DNA of 55,633 nt from positions 1-55,633 of the forward strand of contig CAXTOB010000002.1 of the NCBI GenBank assembly GCA_964245505.1, written 5' to 3'. The DNA comes from an uncultured Acetobacteraceae bacterium (GTDB lineage Bacteria; Pseudomonadota; Alphaproteobacteria; Acetobacterales; Acetobacteraceae). Shown here piece after piece: positions 10,144 to 55,633 of this stretch. The notes under the pieces are model-generated. The model was not told the origin of the DNA. It was given only the letters and a program-made list of their open reading frames with translations, and searched no databases. Position numbers and translations under genes: made by a program. How positions within the stretch are numbered: position 1 is the first letter of the stretch; every line of letters begins with the position of its first letter.

Positions 10144-10310
10144 GCATCCTCCGTGTCGGCGTCCAAACGGTCAGCGAGCCGGCGTTTACAAGCACGGGAA
10201 GACCGGGTAGCCTGACCCCAAGCGAGTGAATAACTCGCATAGTGAATACAACACGTCAAGACTTGGTACGTAAGCCGACAAAGATCGGCATCTCCGGGAA
10301 GCGTTCAATC

Positions 10311-10370
10311 GATGACCAGTCCCCCGATGACCAGCCCCCAAACGACTAGTCCTCCGATGCCCACTCCGCT
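10311..10370 (+). repeat. 4 x 15-bp in-frame tandem repeat at the CoA-transferase 5' end
   Basis: gatgaccagtccccc / gatgaccagccccca / aacgactagtcctcc / gatgcccactccgct. Encodes MTSPPMTSPQTTSPPMPTP. Confidence 0.8.
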
Positions 10371-11592
10371 GAGCCACATCAAGGTTGTCGAGATCAGCGT
10401 GGCGATGGCCGGACCATTCTGCGGCATGATGCTGGCAGACTACGGCGCCGATGTCGTCAAGATCGAACGCGTCGGCCACGGCGACGACAGCCGGGCCTGG
10501 CCGCCGCACTTCCATGGCGGCATGTCCCACTATTACGCCTCCGCCAACCGCAACAAGCGCAGTATCGCGCTCGACCTCAAGGACGCGGCAGGCGTGGCGG
10601 TCGCGCGCCGGCTGATCGAGGACGCCGACGTGCTGATCGACAACTACCGCTTCGGCGCCCTGGCCCGGGCCGGGCTGGACTACGAGTCCCTCGCGGCTGC
10701 CAATCCCCGGCTGATCTACTGCTCCATCAGCGGCTTCGGCGCCAGCGGCCCGCGCCGTGACGACCCGGCGAACGACCTGTTCATGCAAGCCTTTAGCGGC
10801 GGCATGAGCATCACCGGCGAGATCGGCGGCGGCCCCATGAAGATGGGACTTTCGGTCGCCGACGTCGGCGCCGGGCTGATGGGCACGATCGGCATCATGA
10901 TGGCGCTGGAAGCCCGGCACACCACCGGCCGCGGCCAGCGCGTGGACACCTCCCTGCTTGAAGGGCAGGTCTCGATGCTGTCCTACCACCTGTGCCGGTT
11001 CTTCTCGACCGGGAAAGTGCCGGAGCCTTCCGGCAGCGGCAGCTCGACCCAGATTCCCTACCAGGCGTTCAAGGCCGCAGATGACTGGATCGTCATCGCC
11101 GCCTTCAATCAGCGCATGTGGGGCGGCTTCTGCGGCGGCGTCGGCTGCCCGGAGTGGGAGCGCGATCCCCGCTTCACCGACGCAAACGCCAGGGCCCGGC
11201 ATCGCGACGCCCTGCTGACCCTGATCGGCGAGACCCTGGCCCGGCAACCCGCCCAGCACTGGATCAGCAGGCTCGATGCCGCCGGCGTGCCCTGCACCCG
11301 CGTCAATCGCATCGACCAGATGGTGGAGGAGGACCAGGTTATCGCCCGCGAGATGATCCGGGAGATCGACGTCCCCGACCTCGGCCGCATCAAGGTCGCG
11401 GGCCTACCGATCAAGCTGTCGGACACGCCGGGCCGGATCGAACGGCACCCGCCGCACCTGGGCGAGCAAACGGAGGAGGTGCTGCGGGCGCTGGGCTACG
11501 GCGCGGAGCAGGTGGCAACCCTGGCCGAGGCTGGCGCCATAGGCCTGCACCGCACGCCAGGCCAGCCCGTATCCGAGACGACCGCAGCATGA
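10312..11592 (+). CDS. Family III CoA-transferase (CaiB/BaiF type)
   Basis: 426-aa ORF. IKVVEISVAMAGPFCGMMLADYGADVVKIE is a typical N-terminus. Three candidate ATG starts lie inside a 15-bp repeat tract. Confidence 0.85.
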   Translation: MTSPPMTSPQTTSPPMPTPLSHIKVVEISVAMAGPFCGMMLADYGADVVKIERVGHGDDSRAWPPHFHGGMSHYYASANRNKRSIALDLKDAAGVAVARRLIEDADVLIDNYRFGALARAGLDYESLAAANPRLIYCSISGFGASGPRRDDPANDLFMQAFSGGMSITGEIGGGPMKMGLSVADVGAGLMGTIGIMMALEARHTTGRGQRVDTSLLEGQVSMLSYHLCRFFSTGKVPEPSGSGSSTQIPYQAFKAADDWIVIAAFNQRMWGGFCGGVGCPEWERDPRFTDANARARHRDALLTLIGETLARQPAQHWISRLDAAGVPCTRVNRIDQMVEEDQVIAREMIREIDVPDLGRIKVAGLPIKLSDTPGRIERHPPHLGEQTEEVLRALGYGAEQVATLAEAGAIGLHRTPGQPVSETTAA

Positions 11593-13537: not shown

Positions 13538-14885
13538 ATGGCGCTGACCCGTGACCTCGGCCAGTTCGTTTCCGATCTATCGCCCAACCGCGTGCCGGAG
13601 GCAGCCGCTTCCATCGCCCGCACCGGCTTCATCGACTGTATCGGCGTAATGTTCGCCGGGCGCGAGGAGGAGCCGACCCGGCTGCTGCAAGACGTGCTGC
13701 ATCCCGCACCAGGCCCGGCGACGCTGTATTTCAGCGAGCAGACCGCCGGCGCTCCCCGAAGCCGCCTGGATCAACGGCACCGCCGCCCACGCGCTGGACT
13801 ACGACGACGTGGCCCTGCGCGGCCATCCCAGCACCGTGCTGGTGCCTGCCATTCTGGCCGAGGCGGAAACGCTGGACGCCTCCGGCCGCGATATGGTGGT
13901 GGCCTTCGTCGCGGGATACGAGGTTTGGGCGGAGTTGGGTCGGCGGGAAAGCGGCTACCACCACGGCAAGGGCTGGCACCCCACCGGCATCTTCGGCGCG
14001 ATTGCCGCCGCTGCCGCCTGCGCCCACCTGCGCCGGCTGGACCCGGTGCAGACTGCCCAGGCCATTGCGCTCGGCGCCTCGCAGAGCGCCGGGCTGATGG
14101 CGAACTTCGGCACCATGACGAAGCCGTTCCACGCCGGGAAGTCCGCCCATGCCGGCGTGATGGCCGCGCGGCTGGCCTCCGCCGGGTTCACCGCCTCCAT
14201 GGACGCGCTGGAGCATCCGCAGGGCTTCCTGGCCGCGGTGTCGCCGGAGGGCAAGGTTGACCGCGAGAGCAAGGCCGAGGGGCTTGGCGAGACGTGGCGC
14301 ATCATGAAGTCCGGCCTGGCGGTGAAGAAGTATCCCACCTGCTACTGCACGCACCGTGCGATTGACGGCATGCTCGACCTGGTGCGGGAACGGGACGTCA
14401 AGCCTGGCGACGTGGCCGCGGTGACCGTCACCCTCAGCGAGAACTTCGCCACCATCCTACGCAACCACCTGCCGCAGACGGGTCTGGAGGCAAAATTCAG
14501 CATAGAGTTCGCCATGGCGTGCGCCCTGGTCGCGCGTCGAGTTGGCCTGGGTGAGCTGACCGACGCGTTCGTGCACCGGGCGGACGTGCAGGCGCTGATG
14601 CCCCTGGTGTCCGTGCAGATCAGCACGGAGCCGGACCCCGGCTATCCCGGTGCCGCGCTGAATGACCAGGTGACGATCCGCCTGGTCTCCGGCGACACAC
14701 TGATGGGCACCCCTGTGCACCGTGCCCGCGGCCACATCGACAATCCGCTGACAGAACAGGACCTGTTCACCAAATTCGAGGACTGCCTGACGGTCGGCCG
14801 ATCCGCCGTGCCGTCTCAGGTGATGTTCGACCGGCTGAAAGGCATGGAGCACGCGTCGGCCCGCTCCCTGGCCGCCGTGCACTGA
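13538..14885 (+). pseudogene. MmgE/PrpD family protein with a +1 frameshift
   Basis: ORF 13538-14260 carries the family N-terminus. The frame of ORF 13809-14885 carries PEAAWINGTAAHALDYDDVALRGHPS onward. The two join if one C is removed from the cccc run at 13754-13757. Confidence 0.8.
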
Positions 14886-16933: not shown

Positions 16934-18076
16934 CTACTGCGCCTTGTCCAGGAGGTCGTTGTGCTCGCCCAGGCGCGGCACCGGCCACTGCATCTCTGGC
17001 CGCGTCCCATCGAAGCTGACGGGAAGGCCGACCATGCGCAGCCCATCCGCCCGTTGCGCCTGCAATATGCCCAGCGCTTCCGTCTGGGGATGGGCCGCGA
17101 CCTGGGCGACATCCTGCAGCGGCGCGTTCGGGATGCCCAATGCGTCCAGCCGCGCCGCGAGCGCGTCCAGCACCTGGTGCCTCGTGGCCTCCTCGATCAT
17201 CGGCAGCAGCACCTCCCGGTGCGCCACCCGCCCGGCATTGGTGGTGAACCGCTCATCCGCCGCCCATTCCGGATGATCCAGCACCGTGCAGAGCTTGCGA
17301 TACAGCCCGTCATTGCCGGCCGCGATCATCAGCCAGCCATCCCGCGTTGGGAAGCACTGGTAAGGCACGATCTCCGCCACGCCGGAGCCGTAGGGCCGCC
17401 GCGTCTCGCCCGAGGCTCCATAGCTCGCCATGGGCAGGGTCAGCCAGCTCAGCGCCGTCTCATACAGGGAGGTGCTGATGCAGCCGCCGCGCTTGGTCTT
17501 CGCCCGTTCGATCAGGCTCGCCAGGATGCCGATGGTCGCCCACATGCCCGCACCCATGTCCACCAGCGAGGCGCCGGTGCGCACGGGCGGACGCCCGCCA
17601 CCCTCGCCGGTGATGCTCATCAGCCCGGCAAAGGCCTGCATCAATGGGTCATAACCGGGCTTGCTGGTCAGCGGCCCGGCCTCGCCGAAGGCGCCGATGT
17701 TGCAGACGATCAGCTCCGGCTTCTCCGCCAGCAGCCCGGCCGCACCCAACCCGGCCGCCTCGAACACCCCGGCCCGCAGGTTTTGAATGACGACGTCCGC
17801 CCGCTGCAGGATCAACTCCCGCAATGCCGCAACGGCGGCCGGGTCGCCGAAATCAACCGTCAGCCCCTTCTTGCCGCGATTATAGGCGTGGAAGGCGGAC
17901 GCCGTGCCCTCCCAGAATGGCGGCCCCCAGCTACGCGCGTGGTCGCCACCCCTGGGGTTCTCCACCTTCAACACTTCGGCGCCAAGTTCCGAGAAGATCA
18001 GGCCCGCAAACGGCGCGGCGATACTATGCCCAATCTCGATTACTAAGATTCCGCTGAGAGGCTTGGCGCTAGACAT
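16934..18076 (-). CDS. Family III CoA-transferase (CaiB/BaiF type)
   Basis: 380-aa ORF. ILVIEIGHSIAAPFAGLIFSELGAEVLKVE is a typical N-terminus. Paralogous to 10312-11592. Confidence 0.9.
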   Translation of the reverse strand: MSSAKPLSGILVIEIGHSIAAPFAGLIFSELGAEVLKVENPRGGDHARSWGPPFWEGTASAFHAYNRGKKGLTVDFGDPAAVAALRELILQRADVVIQNLRAGVFEAAGLGAAGLLAEKPELIVCNIGAFGEAGPLTSKPGYDPLMQAFAGLMSITGEGGGRPPVRTGASLVDMGAGMWATIGILASLIERAKTKRGGCISTSLYETALSWLTLPMASYGASGETRRPYGSGVAEIVPYQCFPTRDGWLMIAAGNDGLYRKLCTVLDHPEWAADERFTTNAGRVAHREVLLPMIEEATRHQVLDALAARLDALGIPNAPLQDVAQVAAHPQTEALGILQAQRADGLRMVGLPVSFDGTRPEMQWPVPRLGEHNDLLDKAQ

Positions 18077-24012: not shown

Positions 24013-24072
24013 CCAAGCAGCCTTGCGCGGCCTTTCACACAGATGGCCGGTGACCGTGCAAGCCTGCTTAGC
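24013..24072. repeat. F3 palindromic intergenic repeat, copy A
   Basis: ccaagcagccttgcgcgg...gtgcaagcctgcttagc. Arms are complementary, and a related copy lies at 48134-48193. Located between the convergent kinase genes. Confidence 0.5.
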
Positions 24073-24154
24073 TTTTTATCGGTGTGCAGAACCTCCAAAG
24101 GTTCGCCTCGACCTATTTACGTCCACTCAGGACGTAAGCAGGTCTAGTCCTAGC

Positions 24155-40271: not shown

Positions 40272-42452
40272 ATGACCCAGCTTGGGACCATGCCAGGCGA
40301 GTTCCACATCCCTGCCGCCGCGTCGCTGCACTCCCACCGCACCCGCACGCTGAAAAGCGGCGACGCGTTCGGGGTGTTCGACACGGACGGCGACGTGCCC
40401 GGCATCCTCGGCAGCACGGACGGGCTGTATTTCCGCGACACCCGCCACCCGTCCAAGCTCGTGCTGCTCATCGGCAGCCGGCGGCCGGTGCTGCTCAGCT
40501 CCACCTTGCGCGACGACAATGCCGAGTTGACCTGCGATCTCGCCAACCCAGACCTTTACCTGGACGGCCATGGAAACGGACCGCTTGTCATTGAGCAGGA
40601 CATGCTGCACCTGCGGCGCTCCCGCTTCCTATGGCAGGCCGCCCTATATGAGCGCCTGTCGGTGCACTGCTTCGCCCAGCACGCGGTGCAGGTTAGGATC
40701 GAGCTGCACTTCGCCGCAGACTTCGCCGACCTGTTCGAGGCCCGTGGCCTGACGCGCCCCAGCCACGGCCCGCACCTCCCGCCGGAGTGCAGCGGGGACA
40801 GCGTGACCCTGGCCTATGACGGCCTGGACGGGCACTGCCGCACCACCCGACTTCGGTTCAGCCCCGTGCCGGCGTCGCTCAGCGGCCACCGCGCCGTGTT
40901 CGAATGCACCATCGCGCCCGGCGAAACCCAGCTCGTGTTCATCGAGGCCACCTGCAATGCCGCCTCAGCCACCGAGCCGCCCCCCCGCGCCTTCAAGCGG
41001 GCGCTCTATGAATCCCGCCGCCGCCTGCGCCGGGAAAGTGCCCGCGCCGCGGCGGTCGTGACCTCCAATGAGGTGTTCAACGAGGCCATGCGCCGCTCGG
41101 TCGGCGACCTTTATATGCTCGTTACCGACAAGGACACCGGCCCCTATCCCTATGCCGGCGTGCCCTGGTTCTGTGCCGCCTTCGGGCGGGACGCGCTGGT
41201 GACGGCGCTGCAAACCCTGTGGATCGACCCTTCCATCACCTGCGGCGTACTGGCCTACCTGGCCAAGAACCAGGCGACCGCTACCGATCCGGCTGCCGAC
41301 GCCGAACCCGGCAAGATCCTGCACGAGGTACGCCACGGCGAGATGGCGGAACTGGGCGAGGTGCCGTTCCGCCGCTATTACGGCAGCGTGGACAGCACGC
41401 CGCTGTTCATCATGCTGGCCGGCGCCTACCTCGACCGTACTGGCGACCTGGCGACGGTCGCCGGACTTTGACCCAACATCCTGGCCGCGCTGGCGTGGCT
41501 TGATGGGCCGGGCGACCGCGACGGCGACGGCTTCGTCGAGTATCACCGGCAGACGCCGGAGGGCCTGGCCAACCAGGGCTGGAAAGACAGCCACGACTCC
41601 ATCTTCCATGCCGATGGTGCCCTGGCGACGGGCGCCATCGCGCTCGCGGAGGTGCAGGGTTATGCCTATGCCGCGCGCCGGGCAGCAGCCGGCATCGCCC
41701 GCAAAATGGGCCATGCAGCGGAGGCAGACGCCCTGGATGCCTGCGCTGCCGCCCTGCAGGTGGCGTTCGAGGCGGCATTCTGGTGCGAGGACATCGGCAC
41801 CTATGCCATTGCCCTGGATGGCGCGAAGCGGCCCTGCCGGGTGCGCGCGTCCAACGCCGGGCACCTGTTGCTGACCGGCATCGCCGCGCCGGAGCATGGC
41901 CTGCTGGTTGCGGCGCAACTGCTGTCCCGGCCTTTCTTAAGCGGCTGGGGCGTGCGGACGCTGGCGGCAGGCGAGCCGCGCTACAATCCCATGAGCTACC
42001 ACAACGGCTCCGTTTGGCCGCACGACAACGCGCTGATCACGCTGGGCCTGGCGCGCTACGGCTGCCGGGAAGAGGCCGCACGGCTGTTCGGCGCCATGTT
42101 CGACGCCTGCCAGGCCACCGAGCTGCGGCGCCTGCCGGAGCTGTTCTGCGGCTTCCCCCGCCGCCGGGCGCAGGCGCCGGTGGACTACCCGGTCGCGTGT
42201 TCCCCGCAGGCCTGGTCCGCGACGGCGCTGCTGGCGATGCTGCAGGCCTGCCTGGGTCTAAGCTTCGACCCGGGCAGCCGAACGGTGCGCTTCACCCGGC
42301 CGATCCTGCCCGCGTGCCTGGACGAGGTGTCCCTGCTGAACCTGGAGGTCGGGGGTGCCCACATCAGCGTCAGGCTGCGCCGGGCCGGCAACGAGGTGGC
42401 GATGAACGTGACCAGCCGCACCGGAGGCATCCAAGCCGTGCTGGTGAGCTGA
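40272..42452 (+). pseudogene. Amylo-alpha-1,6-glucosidase / glycogen-debranching-type enzyme interrupted by an in-frame TGA
   Basis: ORFs 40257-41471 and 41652-42452 are in the same frame. The intervening sequence translates as PNILAALAWLDGPGDRDGDGFVEYHRQTPEGLANQGWKDSHDS. The only break is TGA 41469-41471. Confidence 0.8.
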
Positions 42453-44157: not shown

Positions 44158-44337
44158 ACAATCCTCCGAAAGTCCCGGCCGCTCACAAGCGGCATCGTCG
44201 TTGCAAGCCGCCCGTGCGGCGTGGCAATCCAGGAATGCACGCCCAGGTCTTGCTGTCCTGGATCGCCGCGCCGAAGCCGGCTCCCAATGACCATGGCCAG
44301 CTAGGATCGCCAAGTCAGAACGTCCAGCGGCTGGTAC
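44158..44337. repeat. Nested-palindrome element E3a (type II outer arms)
   Basis: Arms caatcctccgaaagtcccggccgc / gtcagaacgtccagcggctggtac flank the inner palindrome gtcgttgcaag...ggcaatccagga / tcctggatcgcc...ctcccaatgac. The arms resemble those of E4. Confidence 0.6.
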
Positions 44338-44338
44338 A

Positions 44339-44507
44339 ATACCAACGGCCATTCGCACTGCCCCCTGCGTTGCCGAGCCATCATGACGAGCCGCATCTGC
44401 AACGCGGCAATCATGGGCCGCCAGCACGGTCCTTGCCACCACGGATTGCCGCGTCGCTTCCGCTCCTCGCAATAACGGAAACGGTCAGAGCGAAGGGCCT
44501 TGGGTAT
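44339..44507. repeat. Nested-palindrome element E3b (type I outer arms)
   Basis: Left arm ataccaacggccattcgcactgcccc. Inner catcatgacgag...ggcaatcatgg / acggattgcc...ctcgcaataacg. Right arm gaaacggtcagagcgaagggccttgggtat. Confidence 0.65.
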
Positions 44508-46987: not shown

Positions 46988-47091
46988 TAGAGCATGTTCG
47001 GATCAAACGGCTTCGTTTGACCGCATAGATGCCCGCAAAAACAATAGCTGGAGCGAGCTTGGTGCTTCTATCTGCACCAAGCCCGCCCTAG
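46988..47091 (+). repeat. F2 intergenic repeat, copy A (104 bp)
   Basis: About 90% identical by eye to 55404-55507. Hairpins tcaaacg-gctt-cgtttga and cttggtgc-ttctatct-gcaccaag. Termini tagagc...ctag. Confidence 0.75.
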
Positions 47092-48099: not shown

Positions 48100-48133
48100 G
48101 CGAACCTCTGGGGGTTTGCCCGCTGATAGAAAG

Positions 48134-48193
48134 CCAAGCAGGCTTGCATGGTCACAGGCCACCTATGTGACAAACCGCGCAAGCCTGCTTAGC
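48134..48193. repeat. F3 palindromic intergenic repeat, copy B
   Basis: ccaagcaggcttgc...gcgcaagcctgcttagc with an inner palindrome gtcacaggccacctatgtgac. Lies between the SDR and AKR genes. Confidence 0.5.
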
Positions 48194-50251: not shown

Positions 50252-50432
50252 ATACCAGCCGCCAGAAGTTCTGACCTGCCGGTCTCAACTAGCCCATGTC
50301 ATTGCGAGCCGGCTTCGGCGCGGCAATCTAGGACGGCAAGACCTATGCGTGCAGTCTTGGATTGCCACGCAGCTCGCGCGGCTCGCAATGACAATGCTCT
50401 TCTCAGCGGTCAGAACTTTCGGCGGTTGGCAT
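50252..50432. repeat. Nested-palindrome element E4 (type II outer arms)
   Basis: Arms ataccagccgccagaagttctgacc / ggtcagaactttcggcggttggcat flank gtcattgcgagccggcttcggcgcggcaatctagg ... cttggattgccacgcagctcgcgcggctcgcaatgac. Confidence 0.7.
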
Positions 50433-50573
50433 AAGCCGTGCCGAGCTAAAATCGCAGCGACTCAAATATTGCCCGGCCAGGTGGACCTTTCTGACGAGAT
50501 CGCGAGATATCATCCCCGCTGCCTGCAGCTTGTTCGCCACCCGGCACCGCACTGACGATGCAGTGGGCGTAAA

Positions 50574-51215
50574 TTAAGGCGTGACGGTATCGAGCACCTT
50601 CCTATCTACCACCTGCGCCTCGGCAGCCTGCACCGGCACAGCCAAGGCCGCCGCCTGAGCATCGGCAACCGTCCGCGACAGCATCGCGGCGACCCGGCCC
50701 GCATCGGCAAGGGCAAGCAGCATCGGCTCCGGCCGGCGCACCTGCCAAGGACGCGCGTGCGGCCACAGCCTGGCAAACGCGACGACATGGCCAGGCTTCA
50801 GCCGGATCGGCACATTCCCCAAAGGCCCCTCGGAAACCGCCACCGCCCCGATCACCCGCATCGGCAGAGCCAGCTTCGCGGTCAAGGCGACGCCATACTG
50901 CATCAGCACCCGCTGGTTGGTGATCGTATAAAGCGTGGTCTGCCCCGTCGCCCAAGCGGACGCCGCCACACCAGCCAGCACCAGGCCGCCCATCACCAGT
51001 AGCGGCGCGATGTCTCGCACCGCCTCCCGGGGCGGCAGATGCTCAGCCCGGGCCGCGACGGCATTCACGAACACCAGGGCGCACACCCACAGCACGACCC
51101 CACGGATGTGGAACGCCCCCACCGCCAACCCGCGCCAGCTCGGCTGGCCCTGCCAGACCAGGACCTCCCCCGGCCGCAGCACCGGCGCCGCCGGACGCCC
51201 GAGCAGGCCGCTCAT
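50574..51215 (-). CDS. puhB: Photosynthetic complex assembly protein PuhB
   Basis: 213 aa. LRPGEVLVWQGQPSWRGLAVGAFHIRGV, two TM segments, then a PH-like domain. ATGA overlap with the puhA stop. This is the canonical position after puhA. Confidence 0.75.
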   Translation of the reverse strand: MSGLLGRPAAPVLRPGEVLVWQGQPSWRGLAVGAFHIRGVVLWVCALVFVNAVAARAEHLPPREAVRDIAPLLVMGGLVLAGVAASAWATGQTTLYTITNQRVLMQYGVALTAKLALPMRVIGAVAVSEGPLGNVPIRLKPGHVVAFARLWPHARPWQVRRPEPMLLALADAGRVAAMLSRTVADAQAAALAVPVQAAEAQVVDRKVLDTVTP

Positions 51216-51970
51216 AGCGCGATGCCATCCGAGTGGAACCGCCCGCCTGCATAGTAGGAATTCACCATGTCTTCCTCCCGTCCAGTGATGATGTCCGGCG
51301 CCTTCAGGCGCGGCACATCGTTGAATTGACCCTGGTGCAGGGCGGTCACCCGGATGTCGCGCTCCTGCTCATCCACGTCGCAGTGGTAGATCGGCAGCAG
51401 CACCCGGCCGGTGCCCTGCCCCTCATCAAGGCTGATCTCCAGGTAGCGCAGGACCTTCACGCCACGGTCCACCCAAAGCTCCTCGACCCGGCCGACCGGC
51501 AGGAAGCGTATGTCCAGCACCCGCATTCCGCGCAGGTCGGTTTCGCCAGGCATCACCTTCCAGCCCTTGGCGGCGCGCAGCGGCTGCACCTGGGGTTCAC
51601 CGTCCAGCATCAGGAACGGCTTATCCCGGCGCATGGTGTAGGTGCCCGGCCCCACTGCCGCCGTCAGCGGGTTGCCGTCCGGCTCTAGCGGGCCACCGGC
51701 GAAGCGGAACAGCGGATGGGCGCGTACCGGGGGCGCCGGGTCATGGTGCGGCTGGGCCGTCGCGCTGCCGTCCAGTCGCAGCATCGGGCGGGATGACGGC
51801 TGCAGTTGCGGCCCCGCCAGCGGCTCCAGGCCCAGGTTGTCCTTTGGGTAGCCTTCCCGCCGGTCTTCGCGCACCAGCAGCGCCACAATGCCGATGAACG
51901 CCAGGAAGAACAGCCACCACGCGGCCTGCGCCACGTCTATGTAGTCGGTGATCGCGCCTGCTTGCCGCAT
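51212..51970 (-). CDS. puhA: Photosynthetic reaction centre H subunit
   Basis: 252 aa. N-terminal TM helix followed by REDRREGYP. C-terminal PRC-barrel-like region. GAGGAGG RBS lies in the 11-bp gap after pufC. Confidence 0.9.
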   Translation of the reverse strand: MRQAGAITDYIDVAQAAWWLFFLAFIGIVALLVREDRREGYPKDNLGLEPLAGPQLQPSSRPMLRLDGSATAQPHHDPAPPVRAHPLFRFAGGPLEPDGNPLTAAVGPGTYTMRRDKPFLMLDGEPQVQPLRAAKGWKVMPGETDLRGMRVLDIRFLPVGRVEELWVDRGVKVLRYLEISLDEGQGTGRVLLPIYHCDVDEQERDIRVTALHQGQFNDVPRLKAPDIITGREEDMVNSYYAGGRFHSDGIAL

Positions 51971-51981
51971 GGGTATCCTCC

Positions 51982-53037
51982 TCAGCGTTCAGCTGTTTTG
52001 CTGCTGGCCGGCCCGAGGGCGGGGTAGTCACGCACCATGTTGGCGCCATTCAGCGGCTGTGGGACGCCCTGGTGGCAGGTGGCGCAGACCACCAGCCCGC
52101 TGCCCTGCTGCACCCCGCGCTGCTGTGCCGGGATCACCGGCAGGTCGTTCTCGTGCACCAGCTGCCGGGTTTCCGGAATGGCGGCGGCGACCTGCAGCAG
52201 GAAGTTGTTGTTCAGGTCACGCACCAGGCGCAGGGCGTTGTAGCCGGTCCAGCGCTGCGGCGTGCTCTCGTTCCAATCCCAGAAGGCGCGCGAGTTATGG
52301 CAGTAGCCGCAGTTGACCCCGATGCCATCGGAATACTGCATCATCATCTCATAGACCCGCTTGGCGACCACCTGGTCCGAAACGTGATTGGTCGGCAGCG
52401 CCGTGTCGGACTGCACCCAGATCGGCTCGTCGCCAACATACCACTCGTCCCAGCCGGCGTCCGGGAAGAACTTGCGTACCGTGTCAGCCGACTCCTGCCA
52501 GTTGTCCCGCTTGGCGACGTAGCTGCGATGCGGCATCGGCGCCTGCGGGAACCAGGTCTCCGCCGGCACCGGCTGCCCACGGTGACAAGAATAGCAGGTG
52601 ACGCCGCTGGGCTGGACGTGCTCCTGCCAGTCGGCGTTCAGGTGCCGGGTCATCTTCATCATGATGCGTGCGGCGGCCTTCGCAGGCTTGGCATCGGACG
52701 CCCAGTCATTCCCGGCGTGGCAGAACGCGCAGCCCTCCTGCGGGGACACCCACTGGGTGATGGCATACTGCGTCCGCATGAACTCGGCGGCGCTCACGTC
52801 GGTCAGGACCTGGACGTTCTTATAAACCGCCGTCGCCATGGGGCCGCCGGTTTCGGCAGCCGGCAATGGGACCGGCGCCTTGTTGGAGGCGAGCCAGGTC
52901 TTCACCGGCTCGAACTGGATGCCCTGGGGGAAGCTCATCTCGGTCCCCTTGGCCACGTGCTCCCAAGTCGGCACGAACAGGATGAAGGCGGCGCCGGCCA
53001 GCAGGGCCGCACCTGCGACGAGGGTGAGAGATTTCAT
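51982..53037 (-). CDS. pufC: Reaction-centre tetrahaem cytochrome c subunit
   Basis: 351 aa. N-terminal membrane anchor. Four CxxCH motifs (CAFCH, CYSCH, CGYCH, CATCH). ATGA overlap with the pufM stop. Confidence 0.9.
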
Positions 53038-54050
53038 TGCGGCGCCTCCGGCTGACGCACCTCAAGCTGCGGCAGGCGCGGCATGATCCCCGCTGGCAAG
53101 CTGTCCGGGATCGGCTGCAGCCGGGCATACTGCGGCGCGATGCCGTGCTTCACGCCCCACAGATACCAGTTGTCCACCACGGTGCCGGTCATCAGGATGC
53201 CGATGCCGCCGGTCAGCGTCGTCAGCGTCGAGAAGACGAAAAGCCAGCGGTGCACCGAGTCGAAGTTGGCGTTGAACCCCATCGTCCAGCGCCAGAACAG
53301 CGAACCGCGCTCCATCGCCGTGCCGGGATCGGTGATCTCATGCGTTTCCCGCTCGCCGCCGAACTTGGTGACCGCCAGGATGGTGCCGGCGTGCATGGTG
53401 AACAGCATCGTCGAGCCATACAGGAACACGATGCTCAACATGTGGAACGGGTTGTAGAAGATGTTGCCGTAACGAACCGAGAACGTTGCCGTCCAGTTTA
53501 GGTGCTCGATGATCCCGAACGGCACCGCCTCCGACCACGACCCCATCAGGATCGGCCGGATGAAGCCCAGCACGAGATACAGCCAGATGGCCGAGGCGAA
53601 CGCCCAGCATACATGCATTCCCATCTTCAGCGCCCTGGCCCGGCGATACATCCGCAGCCACCACAGCAGGATGCTTGCCGTCAGGAAGAACCCGGCCATC
53701 AGCCACCAGCCGCCATCCTCCAGCGGCGGGAAGATGGACAGGCCCTGCTTGGCCGACGGCGGCTCCAGCGCCAGAAACGGCAGCATCTTGATGAAGCGGA
53801 TGACGTTCCAATCCACCGACGCCCACATGTTGAGGCCGATGATCTCGAACGCGATGAAGCCGCAGATGATCGAGGCTAGGCCCAACCCGCCCAGGTAGGT
53901 CGGCCCAACCTGGTTCTCGCCGATGCGGCCGAGCCAGCGGGAGCGGAACGGACGCAGCAGCCGGGGCGAGCTGCCGCGCGGCAGCGCAATGCCCAGTTCG
54001 TCGGGACCTTGCAGCTCGAACGATGTGTAGAGGGTGTGGTAGCGGGCCAT
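53034..54050 (-). CDS. pufM: Photosynthetic reaction centre M subunit
   Basis: 338 aa. [47 protein letters not shown] and HRW are conserved. AGGAGGAG RBS. Confidence 0.95.
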
Positions 54051-54075
54051 GGCGGCTCCTCCTGGACAAGCGGCG

Positions 54076-54915
54076 TCAGTTGAAACCCGTGGCGCTCCAG
54101 ATCGGGATATGCAGATACCAATCCCACCAATAGGGCCAGCCGCGGGTCCAGACCGTGCCGGAAATCAGGATGCAGATGGCGCTCCAAACCCCGGCGTTGA
54201 TCGCCAAGAAAAAGCCCAGCCGGTGAATGCCCAGCTCGCCGATGGAATAGGCGATGGTGTCGCGGAAATAGACGCTCTCATGCTCGGAGGATTTGACGCG
54301 CCCGCCCGGCGGTGGATGCGCCGATGAAAGGATTTCCGCGCTATGCAGCGCCAGCGCAAAAGTGGTGGTGAAAAAGAACGTCACAGCCAGCATGTGCGCC
54401 GGGTTGTAATGGAAATGTAAATATTGATAGCCGGTGTTGCTGACCCAATCGAGGTGGCTCATGATCCCATATGGGAAACCGTAGCCCCAAGCGCCCATCA
54501 GAACCGGCCGTATCACGACCAGGCTGACGTAGGCGAAAATAGCGGCGGAGAAGCCGATCGGCACATGCAGGCCCATGCCCAGCTTGCGGGCGATCTCCAC
54601 CTGGCGCAGCGCCCAGCTCACGAAAGCGATGATGGCGAACAAGGTAATCCATTGCCAAAGCCCGCCGTCCTGCAAGGGGGCAAAGGCAAGGCCCCGGCTG
54701 ATAGGTGGCGGGTTGATGGTAATGGCAAATGGAGCCCAAGTCGGACCGGTTGCAGCACCATAAAAGATTAAAAGCGTGCCAAGCAGCGCGGAAGCAACAG
54801 CAGTTACGCCAAAGAATCCGACGTAAAATGGCCCGACCCAGAAGTCGAACAGGTCGCCGCCGACCAAGGTGCCGCCACGGATGCGATACTTTGCTTCGAA
54901 CGATAGAAGGGCCAT
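54076..54915 (-). CDS. pufL: Photosynthetic reaction centre L subunit
   Basis: Start [36 protein letters not shown] (ATG 54915) after [37 protein letters not shown] and GIHRLG are conserved. Confidence 0.95.
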
Positions 54916-54942
54916 TGCACTCTCCGGGAAACCCCTTGTATC

Positions 54943-54960
54943 TGTCAATAAAATCTGACA
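54943..54960. promoter_or_regulatory. TGT-N12-ACA palindrome 1 (PpsR/CrtJ-type operator candidate)
   Basis: tgtcaataaaatctgaca, 28 bp upstream of the pufL ATG. Confidence 0.5.
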
Positions 54961-54963
54961 AAC

Positions 54964-54993
54964 CATGTGTCAACCTAACATGTGTCAACCTAA
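54964..54993. repeat. Exact 2 x 15-bp tandem duplication (catgtgtcaacctaa)
   Basis: 54964-54978 and 54979-54993 are identical. Each copy carries TGTCAA, which reads TTGACA on the pufL strand. Confidence 0.9.
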
Positions 54994-55000
54994 GATGACA
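54983..55000. promoter_or_regulatory. TGT-N12-ACA palindrome 2 (PpsR/CrtJ-type operator candidate)
   Basis: tgtcaacctaagatgaca, 22 bp from palindrome 1, in the pufL / SH3-gene divergent spacer. Confidence 0.45.
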
Positions 55001-55018
55001 TGACAGGAGATGCAATCG

Positions 55019-55366
55019 ATGAACGCTCTTCAATCCGTGATCGCGGTTGCCGCAGCCGTCCTGGCCATCACCGCGCCAGCCCACGCGTGGACTGGCCATG
55101 CGACCCGCGCGACCTTCCTGCGCGCCGGGCCAGGGCTCGAATATTCGGTGACGGACGAGGTGGACCACGAGGCCGCCCTGGACGTGCTGAAGTGCACCGG
55201 CGACTGGTGCGAGGTCCGGTTTGAGGGGTCTATCGGCTGGGTCATGGCGAGCACGGTGACGCAGGCAACGCCAGCACCCGTGCCGCCACATGAAGCGCAG
55301 GCATGCTTCGTGGATCGGCAGGCAGGTTACGGCAAGGGGGAGCAGACCCGATTCTGTCCGCGGTAA
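55019..55366 (+). CDS. Secreted bacterial SH3 domain protein
   Basis: Signal peptide MNALQSVIAVAAAVLAITAPAHA. SH3b-like LRAGPGLEYSVTDEVDHEAALDVLKCTGDWCEVRFEGSIGWV. ATG 55019 lies 8 nt after AGGAGA. The ORF track begins at 55010. Confidence 0.7.
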   Translation: MNALQSVIAVAAAVLAITAPAHAWTGHATRATFLRAGPGLEYSVTDEVDHEAALDVLKCTGDWCEVRFEGSIGWVMASTVTQATPAPVPPHEAQACFVDRQAGYGKGEQTRFCPR

Positions 55367-55403: not shown

Positions 55404-55507
55404 TAGAGCATGTTCGGATCAAACGGCTTCGTTTGACCGAACAAATGCTCGCAAAAACAACAGCTAGAGTGGGCTTGGTGCTTCTATCTGCACCAAACCC
55501 GCTCTAG
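55404..55507 (+). repeat. F2 intergenic repeat, copy B (104 bp)
   Basis: Aligns end to end with 46988-47091 with a handful of substitutions and the same two hairpins. Confidence 0.75.
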
Positions 55508-55531
55508 TGCCCCATCATTCCTGATTTGATA

Positions 55532-55633
55532 ATACCAAACGCCTTTCGCTCTGACCGTTTTCGTCATTGCGAGGAGCACAGCGACGCGGCAATCCAGAGC
55601 GGCAAGCACAGTGCTGGCGGCCCTGGATTGCCG
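55532..55633. repeat. Nested-palindrome element E5 (type I), truncated by the window end
   Basis: ataccaaacgcctttcgctctgaccgttttc followed by gtcattgcgaggagcacagcgacgcggcaatccag...ccctggattgccg. The tail orientation is opposite to E1. Confidence 0.7.

Follow-up and report, generated by a model that had tools for sequence, protein, structure and literature searches.

A contiguous pufL-pufM-pufC-puhA-puhB reaction-center operon with a divergent SH3-domain gene recurs in uncultured Acetobacteraceae, Methylobacterium and other bacteria

We analyzed a 55,633-nt stretch of DNA from an uncultured Acetobacteraceae bacterium (contig CAXTOB010000002.1; hereafter, the window), in which the genes for the four photosynthetic reaction center (RC) subunits and the gene puhB form one minus-strand unit, pufL-pufM-pufC-puhA-puhB (positions 50574-54915), next to a divergent gene for a small SH3-domain protein. 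All 21 related loci that we retrieved (denoted L001-L021) share this layout, in which a divergent SH3 gene precedes pufL-pufM-pufC-puhA-puhB. The unit is most probably the working RC core operon of an aerobic anoxygenic phototroph close to the genus CAHJXG01, in which the photosynthesis genes would be split among several loci. As far as sequence comparison can tell, this layout is inherited and is ordinary in lichen-associated Acetobacteraceae, Methylobacterium and other bacteria.

All five open reading frames (ORFs) of the unit pass the cut-offs of curated equivalog models. These ORFs are pufL, encoding the 279-aa L subunit (54076..54915; TIGR01157, 392 bits with a cut-off of 266); pufM, the 338-aa M subunit (53034..54050; TIGR01115, 483 bits with a cut-off of 364); pufC, the 351-aa tetraheme cytochrome subunit (51982..53037; NF040706, 304 bits with a cut-off of 150, and PF02276); puhA, the 252-aa H subunit (51212..51970; TIGR01150, 219.5 bits with a cut-off of 200, along with PF03967 and PF05239); and puhB, a putative 213-aa RC assembly factor (50574..51215; NF040894, 141 bits with a cut-off of 110). 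The start of pufL was assigned to the ATG at 54915 and not to the upstream ATG at 54966; the proteins of the relatives all begin with MALLS or MSMLS. The genes are joined either by overlaps, which have the form ATGA at both pufM/pufC and puhA/puhB, or by gaps of 11-25 nt, with ribosome-binding sites: the 25-nt gap between pufL and pufM contains AGGAGGAG, and at the 11-nt gap between pufC and puhA, GGAGGATACCC, the TGA stop overlaps GAGGAGG. ORFs, curated models and junctions, as read in the sequence, thus agree with the original prediction, which had described one tightly packed unit with these overlaps and this ribosome-binding site. A single promoter upstream of pufL would drive all five genes as one translationally coupled transcript, and the L, M, cytochrome and H subunits would be made together with the PuhB assembly factor.

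The cofactor ligands are intact in the encoded proteins. Alignment of PufL to solved L chains (450 bits) shows His153, His173, His190 and His230, and alignment of PufM to solved structures shows His182, His202, His219 and His266 along with Glu234, so that L and M together contain the His ligands of both the special-pair and the accessory bacteriochlorophylls and the four-His/one-Glu set of the non-heme iron that define a type II RC. Four CxxCH motifs can be read in the translation of pufC; the predicted intactness of the ligand contexts in L, M and C is borne out by these alignments and motifs. PufC starts with a hydrophobic helix of the uncleaved type, without a lipobox Cys, and PufM carries a C-terminal extension typical of RCs that bind PufC. 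PuhA, with an N-terminal membrane helix and a PRC-barrel domain, can be aligned over its full length to solved H subunits (154 bits). The best match of PufM among solved structures was 9m8m (about 500 bits, with many mismatches); the suspicion that 9m8m was a Methylobacterium structure was dropped, as the PufM match was not close enough.

To gauge selection, the ratio of nonsynonymous to synonymous substitution rates (dN/dS) was calculated pairwise between the window and five relatives. The values are lowest for pufL (0.03-0.07), followed by pufM (0.09-0.22) and pufC (0.08-0.29), and range from 0.19 to 0.42 for puhA, from 0.17 to 0.36 for puhB and from 0.21 to 0.40 for the SH3 gene. All six genes are thus under purifying selection, as expected of constrained and functional genes.

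A separate observation concerns the site of the secondary quinone (QB) in PufL, where the residue numbers are those of the Rhodobacter sphaeroides protein. Throughout the clade (L001-L016 and the window), PufL has His190-(Ser/Gly)-(Ala/Gly)-Glu193, residue 213 is Ser and residue 226 is Glu or Ser, whereas the corresponding residues are His-Gly-Ala-Leu, Asp and Thr in the solved L chain that matches best. These differences may imply a different proton path to QB. Their interpretation as a sign of decay was rejected, because they are kept across the whole clade.

The region upstream of pufL (54916..55018) contains two TGT-N12-ACA palindromes, a putative promoter and a 15-bp duplication. The distance from the pufL ATG to the divergent SH3 ORF is 94 bp (95 bp in the original prediction), or 103 bp when counted to the better-placed ATG at 55019, should this be the SH3 start. 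The palindromes, TGTCAATAAAATCTGACA and TGTCAACCTAAGATGACA, occupy 54943-54960 and 54983-55000. The window as a whole has only four sites of this kind, no more than expected by chance, and two of the four lie inside the 94-bp spacer. On the minus strand, a promoter-like site consists of a -35 hexamer TTGACA (54973-54968), a 17-nt spacer and a -10 hexamer TATTGA (54950-54945); read along the operon, the distal palindrome ends in TTGACA and, 17 nt on, the proximal palindrome includes TATTGA. In each of the 18 loci in which the 5' end of pufL is present, palindromes of this type occupy equivalent positions upstream of the gene. In almost all of the Acetobacteraceae and Methylobacterium loci, one palindrome is located at about -45 from the pufL ATG, usually with a second one 7 bp upstream, and the more distant loci have one or two palindromes. 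The 15-bp tandem duplication (54964-54978 and 54979-54993; CATGTGTCAACCTAA twice on the plus strand) is specific to the window, being absent from L004 and L005; it increases the distance between the proximal and distal palindromes from 7 to 22 bp, and a half-site is left where the distal palindrome had been.

Photosynthesis promoters of Rhodobacter that are repressed by PpsR/CrtJ carry paired TGT-N12-ACA palindromes spanning the -35 and -10 elements. The region upstream of pufL resembles these promoters in having two palindromes (7 bp apart in the nearest relatives) over TTGACA-N17-TATTGA, but differs from them in the 22-bp spacing found in the window and in the location of the sites in a divergent spacer shared with the SH3 gene. 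Paired palindromes at a promoter-like site are the sequence signature of the PpsR/CrtJ regulon, and by analogy, the operon is probably under PpsR control. Under this model, the two palindromes would overlap the -35 and -10 elements, the spacer would serve the SH3 gene as well, and the operon would remain within the oxygen- and light-controlled photosynthesis regulon despite its separation from bch, crt and pufBA.

The related loci come from about 12 uncultured Acetobacteraceae genomes (of the lichen genus CAHJXG01), one 6.38-Mb Methylobacterium chromosome and several unidentified lineages. They were reached by several routes. The nearest PufM homologs are metagenomic, with no more than 94% identity, and in the contexts of five PufM homologs picked solely by the length of their contigs and otherwise unselected, including that on the Methylobacterium chromosome, the SH3 gene and pufL-pufM-pufC-puhA-puhB were invariably found among unrelated housekeeping genes. 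A scan with the PuhA of the window against one genome per species, which finds close relatives only, yielded ten loci, all in uncultured Acetobacteraceae metagenome-assembled genomes (MAGs), and tblastn revealed the same order in each of them. Most of these MAGs originate from a global lichen metagenome survey, where they were assigned to the GTDB genus CAHJXG01 (PMC11542873). The same block was present in five further loci reached via the SH3 protein. A metagenome scan with the SH3 alignment detected two loci only, and both have this block.

Some of the more distant loci show the block in a photosynthetic context. In L020, it adjoins hemE, tspO, a gene for a BLUF/AppA-type regulator, bchI and bchD, and in L021, it adjoins crtC, which ties the block to photosynthesis gene clusters. 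These gene neighborhoods indicate that the block is a regular building unit of an alternative photosynthesis cluster architecture, sometimes embedded and sometimes isolated. Six of the more distant loci (L002, L003, L016, L019, L020 and L021) also contain puhC, but after puhB and in convergent orientation, encoded on the opposite strand with a slight overlap between the two genes, in contrast to the co-directional canonical puhABC. No such puhC is present in the Acetobacteraceae loci, including the window, or in Methylobacterium. The neighboring genes of L016 suggest, as a guess, a betaproteobacterial origin. Among the PufM homologs, the 619-aa protein P0199 belongs to a cluster of 334-aa PufM proteins (the cluster of P0003); it could be an L-M fusion, or else a read-through or assembly artifact.

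The location of the missing photosynthesis genes is suggested by L007, which has the same operon and a PufM 93% identical to that of the window. Its source MAG, private_VT34_metawrap_bin.3, was scored as 'full' for the photosystem (pufABCML-puhA), bacteriochlorophyll and carotenoids (supplement of PMC11542873), and none of the pufBA-, bch- or crt-type genes was found within 7-10 kb of its operon. By extrapolation from this MAG, the organism represented by the window would carry pufBA and the pigment genes elsewhere in its genome, presumably along with puhC.

The Methylobacterium locus, L015, also starts with the SH3 gene followed by pufL-pufM-pufC-puhA-puhB and has two TGT-N12-ACA sites upstream. 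It differs from the window in belonging to Methylobacteriaceae, in the identity of the proteins (76% for PufM and 36% for PuhA), in the length of PuhA (307 aa) and in the genes after puhB, which encode an HPP-family protein and regulators. The photosynthesis genes of Methylobacterium have been reported to form two chromosomal clusters flanked by housekeeping genes; the text of that report does not make the linkage of pufC with puhA explicit (Zervas et al. 2019, PMC6798729).

The divergent gene is the other invariant part of the block. It encodes an SH3b-domain protein (PF08239/PF06347) of 115 aa when read from 55019 (55019..55366, plus strand; the ORF opens at 55010), with a signal peptide ending in AHA and four invariant Cys residues. 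A profile search of a collection of 5.8 billion proteins delineated a family of only 61 members, counted as clusters at 90% identity. In every context examined, amounting to 19 loci (the window, L001-L008 and L012-L021) and including three deliberately distant members, the SH3 gene adjoins pufL. The structural model shows a confident SH3b barrel and a C-terminal hairpin (predicted local distance difference test score, pLDDT, 82). Comparison with solved structures, by sequence or by fold, gave only generic SH3 domains and no informative match; the protein matches no chain of the solved complexes of the RC with light-harvesting complex 1 (RC-LH1), and we found no mention of an SH3 domain together with pufL in the searchable open-access literature. 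A functional link between this protein and the RC is likely. More specifically, it is conceivable, although we would not bet on it, that the SH3 protein is an unrecognized, photosynthesis-specific partner of the RC, either a periplasmic assembly or stabilizing factor or a loosely bound subunit; the palindrome-bearing spacer between the SH3 gene and the operon would then place both under joint regulation.

The canonical photosynthesis units, such as those of Rhodobacter, are bchCXYZ-pufBALM(C/X) and bchFNBHLM-lhaA-puhABC-acsF-puhE. The proteins encoded by the operon in the window (L, M, the tetraheme cytochrome, H and PuhB) and their cofactor ligands do not differ from those of the canonical units, but there are no pufB and pufA immediately upstream of pufL, no bchZ upstream, no lhaA or bchM before puhA, and no puhC, acsF or puhE after puhB. 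Because pufBA requires about 350 bp, it cannot fit between pufL and the divergent SH3 gene. The absence of puhC was confirmed by tblastn with three PuhC proteins, which gave no match in the window. Pfam scans of all other sizeable ORFs in the first 50 kb detected neither lhaA nor acsF, nor any further gene of the bch, crt, puf or puh groups. A crude motif search revealed no credible light-harvesting (LH) alpha or beta polypeptide in the window and no LH-like ORF in any of the 21 related loci; small ORFs near the block in other loci were considered as LH polypeptides and rejected. In these respects, that is, an order unlike the canonical units, no room for pufBA, no puhC after puhB and no pigment biosynthesis gene in the preceding 50 kb, the original prediction holds.

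In the literature, the canonical order is reported for Acidisoma sibiricum (PMC13583976), and a review places puhA apart from pufLMC, with bch genes (PMC6920907). This rule does not hold for the present PufLM clade. A contiguous pufLMC-puhABC has been described once in the searchable literature, in the 'incomplete' photosynthesis gene cluster that Citromicrobium sp. JL354 carries besides a full one (Jiao et al. 2010; Zheng et al. 2012, PMC3338782; repeated in PMC12654162), and this is the closest described case. The pufLMC-puhAB arrangement is much more widespread than published descriptions suggest.

Two alternatives to a standard, inherited operon merit the most attention, although both are improbable. 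One, in line with the relocated or horizontally acquired module of the original prediction, is that the RC genes are a mobile module, recently relocated in this genome or acquired horizontally and moved by the flanking repeats. Some of the comparisons with the nearest relatives fit this possibility. The nucleotide homology of the window with L004 and L005 (92-95%) coincides exactly with the 4.8-kb block, one limit lying about 30 bp after the stop codon of the SH3 gene and the other at that of puhB, whereas the flanks differ: efflux-pump genes are found upstream in L004, and L005 carries a glycogen-debranching gene (GDE), an E-type repeat, a major facilitator superfamily (MFS) transporter gene and an amino-acid permease gene. 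Dispersed repeats lie at both boundaries of the block in the window. An E-type palindromic repeat (50253..50397; fold z-score -5.7) marks the conserved-block boundary 3' of puhB, and an F-type repeat (55404..55507) and another E-type copy, cut by the end of the window (55525..55633), lie beyond the SH3 gene. The block is inverted relative to GDE between the window and L005, and its occurrence in different bacterial families suggests past transfer.

Closer inspection of the same features argues for local rearrangement. The GDE gene of L005 is the ortholog of the gene at 40272-42449 of the window (91.7% identity) and is no more than 4-10 kb away from the block in either genome, but it is found on the side of the SH3 gene in L005 and on that of puhB in the window; hence, the block was inverted within the same neighborhood rather than imported. 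Comparison of the window with L005 gave a synonymous divergence (dS) of 0.18-0.37 for the genes of the operon and of 0.19 for the neighboring GDE, which indicates that the operon diverged together with the chromosome, without recent acquisition. In the subgroup of L006, L007, L010 and L012, both flanks are syntenic (the all-against-all tblastx comparison of the flanks gave GC-rich noise until the matches were filtered at more than 110 bits). The GC content at third codon positions (GC3) of most operon genes is typical of the host, and Pfam scans detected no integrase, transposase or conjugation domain in the 55-kb window.

The repeats themselves are real, as originally predicted, but do not bracket this cassette specifically. 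The same families occur at five or more other intergenic sites in the window and the relatives; in the window, there are further E-type copies at 148-290, 44188-44336 and 44371-44507 (five E copies in total) and a further F-type copy at 46988-47091 (two in total). A third dispersed family is present at 24015-24093 and 48112-48190. All are intergenic and about 80-145 nt long, the E-type being strongly self-complementary with nested hairpins. Copies were also found in the related MAG contigs L004, L005 and L011, and in L004 and L011, an E-family copy likewise lies just 3' of puhB. The repeats look like elements of the repetitive extragenic palindrome or miniature inverted-repeat transposable element (REP/MITE) type, not like the ends of a mobile cassette. 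They do coincide with the synteny breakpoints around the RC block, and inverted E-type copies (44192-44507 and 55525-55633) could have mediated the inversion of the block.

Of the proposed relocation, the rearranged flanks between the closest relatives and the repeats at the boundaries stand, but a relocated or horizontally acquired cassette peculiar to this genome is not supported: the dS is like that of GDE, mobility genes are absent from the 55 kb, and none of the close relatives found lacks the block. This gene order, along with the SH3 gene and the palindromes, is ordinary in L004-L013, L017 and L018, in Methylobacterium and in others, which is the finding that the original prediction itself had listed as speaking against it. 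The sequence comparisons do not support recent horizontal acquisition. An ancient transfer of the module between bacterial families is plausible; in published trees, most Acetobacteraceae PufM proteins are placed apart from those of Rhodopila, and transfers are considered likely (PMC10715153).

The other alternative, which we regard as equally improbable, is that the operon is a second, accessory RC set beside a complete canonical cluster. The precedent is Citromicrobium sp. JL354, where pufLMC is likewise contiguous with puhAB, without pufBA, bch and crt, and apart from the main cluster; some Antarctic Acetobacteraceae MAGs appear to hold two photosynthetic gene clusters (PMC10715153), and our view of this genome ends with the window. 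However, the extra copy of Citromicrobium is carried by an integrating conjugative element, includes puhC and was attributed to horizontal transfer (PMC3338782), whereas the window has no puhC, no conjugative-element genes within its 55 kb, a host-like divergence, an order shared lineage-wide and a divergent SH3 gene. The scan of close relatives yielded a single puhA locus per MAG, the sole exception being two overlapping contigs in one MAG, and the two-cluster split of Methylobacterium has been reported as its only set of photosynthesis genes (PMC6798729). Strong purifying selection and the conserved operator sites fit a sole, essential copy.

Less likely still is a decaying remnant of phototrophy from which the antenna and pigment genes have been lost. 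The loss of photosynthesis has been described within Acetobacteraceae (PMC10715153), the 55 kb contain no antenna or pigment genes, and at least one gene in the window appears disrupted (GDE, with an in-frame TGA); against this, all five ORFs are full-length with intact ligands, dN/dS is far below 1 relative to several relatives, and the operator palindromes are kept. Finally, an assembly artifact joining the puf and puh regions at pufC-puhA, which the original prediction had raised as an alternative, can be practically dismissed: nearby repeats could in principle confuse an assembler and no other support for it was found, but the junction lies in unique coding sequence and is the same in about 20 independent assemblies, including contigs of 0.2-6.4 Mb.

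Several points also weigh against the interpretation of the unit as the regular, PpsR-controlled RC operon of a phototroph. The phototrophy of the organism is read from its genes, and that it has pufBA, bch, crt, puhC and ppsR is extrapolated from relatives. The -10 hexamer TATTGA is weak, and a consensus promoter scanner called no promoter in the pufL 5' region; the 22-bp spacing of the palindromes could weaken cooperative binding of a repressor. At the other end of the operon, a consensus terminator scan and folding revealed no canonical intrinsic terminator after puhB, where a GC-rich hairpin (50538-50569) directly follows the stop. The GC3 of pufL (0.73) is lower than that of pufM, pufC, puhA and puhB (0.84-0.90); low values for pufL were also obtained in L004 (0.79) and L005 (0.80), compared with 0.90-0.98 in other loci.

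The other sizeable ORFs of the window belong to ordinary metabolism and transport. Aldo-keto reductase genes come after puhB, and the Pfam matches of the ORFs in the first 50 kb include transporters, acyl-CoA and CoA-transferase enzymes, an SNF2 helicase, aldo-keto reductases and a molybdopterin oxidoreductase. No Rfam family was matched anywhere in the window. The glycogen-debranching-type gene GDE (40272-42449, plus strand; GDE_N_bis and an MGH1-like glycoside hydrolase domain) has one in-frame TGA at 41469-41471, at a position that aligns inside the uninterrupted 726-aa ortholog of L005, to which it is 91.7% identical overall; it is either a nonsense pseudogene or the result of a sequencing error. 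An ORF of the MmgE/PrpD family (13809-14885, plus strand) starts at position 95 of the profile and might be N-terminally truncated. The MmgE/PrpD region is flanked by two paralogous family-III CoA-transferase genes (10246-11589 and 16934-18076), and several ORFs between 11.5 and 16.5 kb have no family match.

For the window, the result is mainly corrective, in that the locus is a normal, functional-looking RC operon rather than an exotic acquisition. Under the preferred interpretation, the layout is the inherited standard of a whole PufLM clade, in which rearrangement, apparently through recombination at dispersed repeats, has been local and confined to the flanks, and pufBA, puhC and the pigment synthesis genes would reside elsewhere in the genome. 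The locus also shows dispersed palindromic repeats reshuffling the neighborhoods around a conserved block. For a new RC accessory protein, the SH3 gene with its strict linkage offers a cheap candidate. A sizeable PufLM clade, including lichen Acetobacteraceae, Methylobacterium and others, breaks the rule that puhA is found with bch genes and pufLM after pufBA, and tools for cluster recognition that rely on canonical synteny will fragment or miss such phototrophs. The classical pufBALM operon sets the ratio of antenna to RC through differential decay of one mRNA. With the LH1 genes at other loci, this ratio would have to be set by separate transcription units with their own promoters, not by processing of a single puf mRNA, a prediction that is testable in the genetically tractable Methylobacterium.

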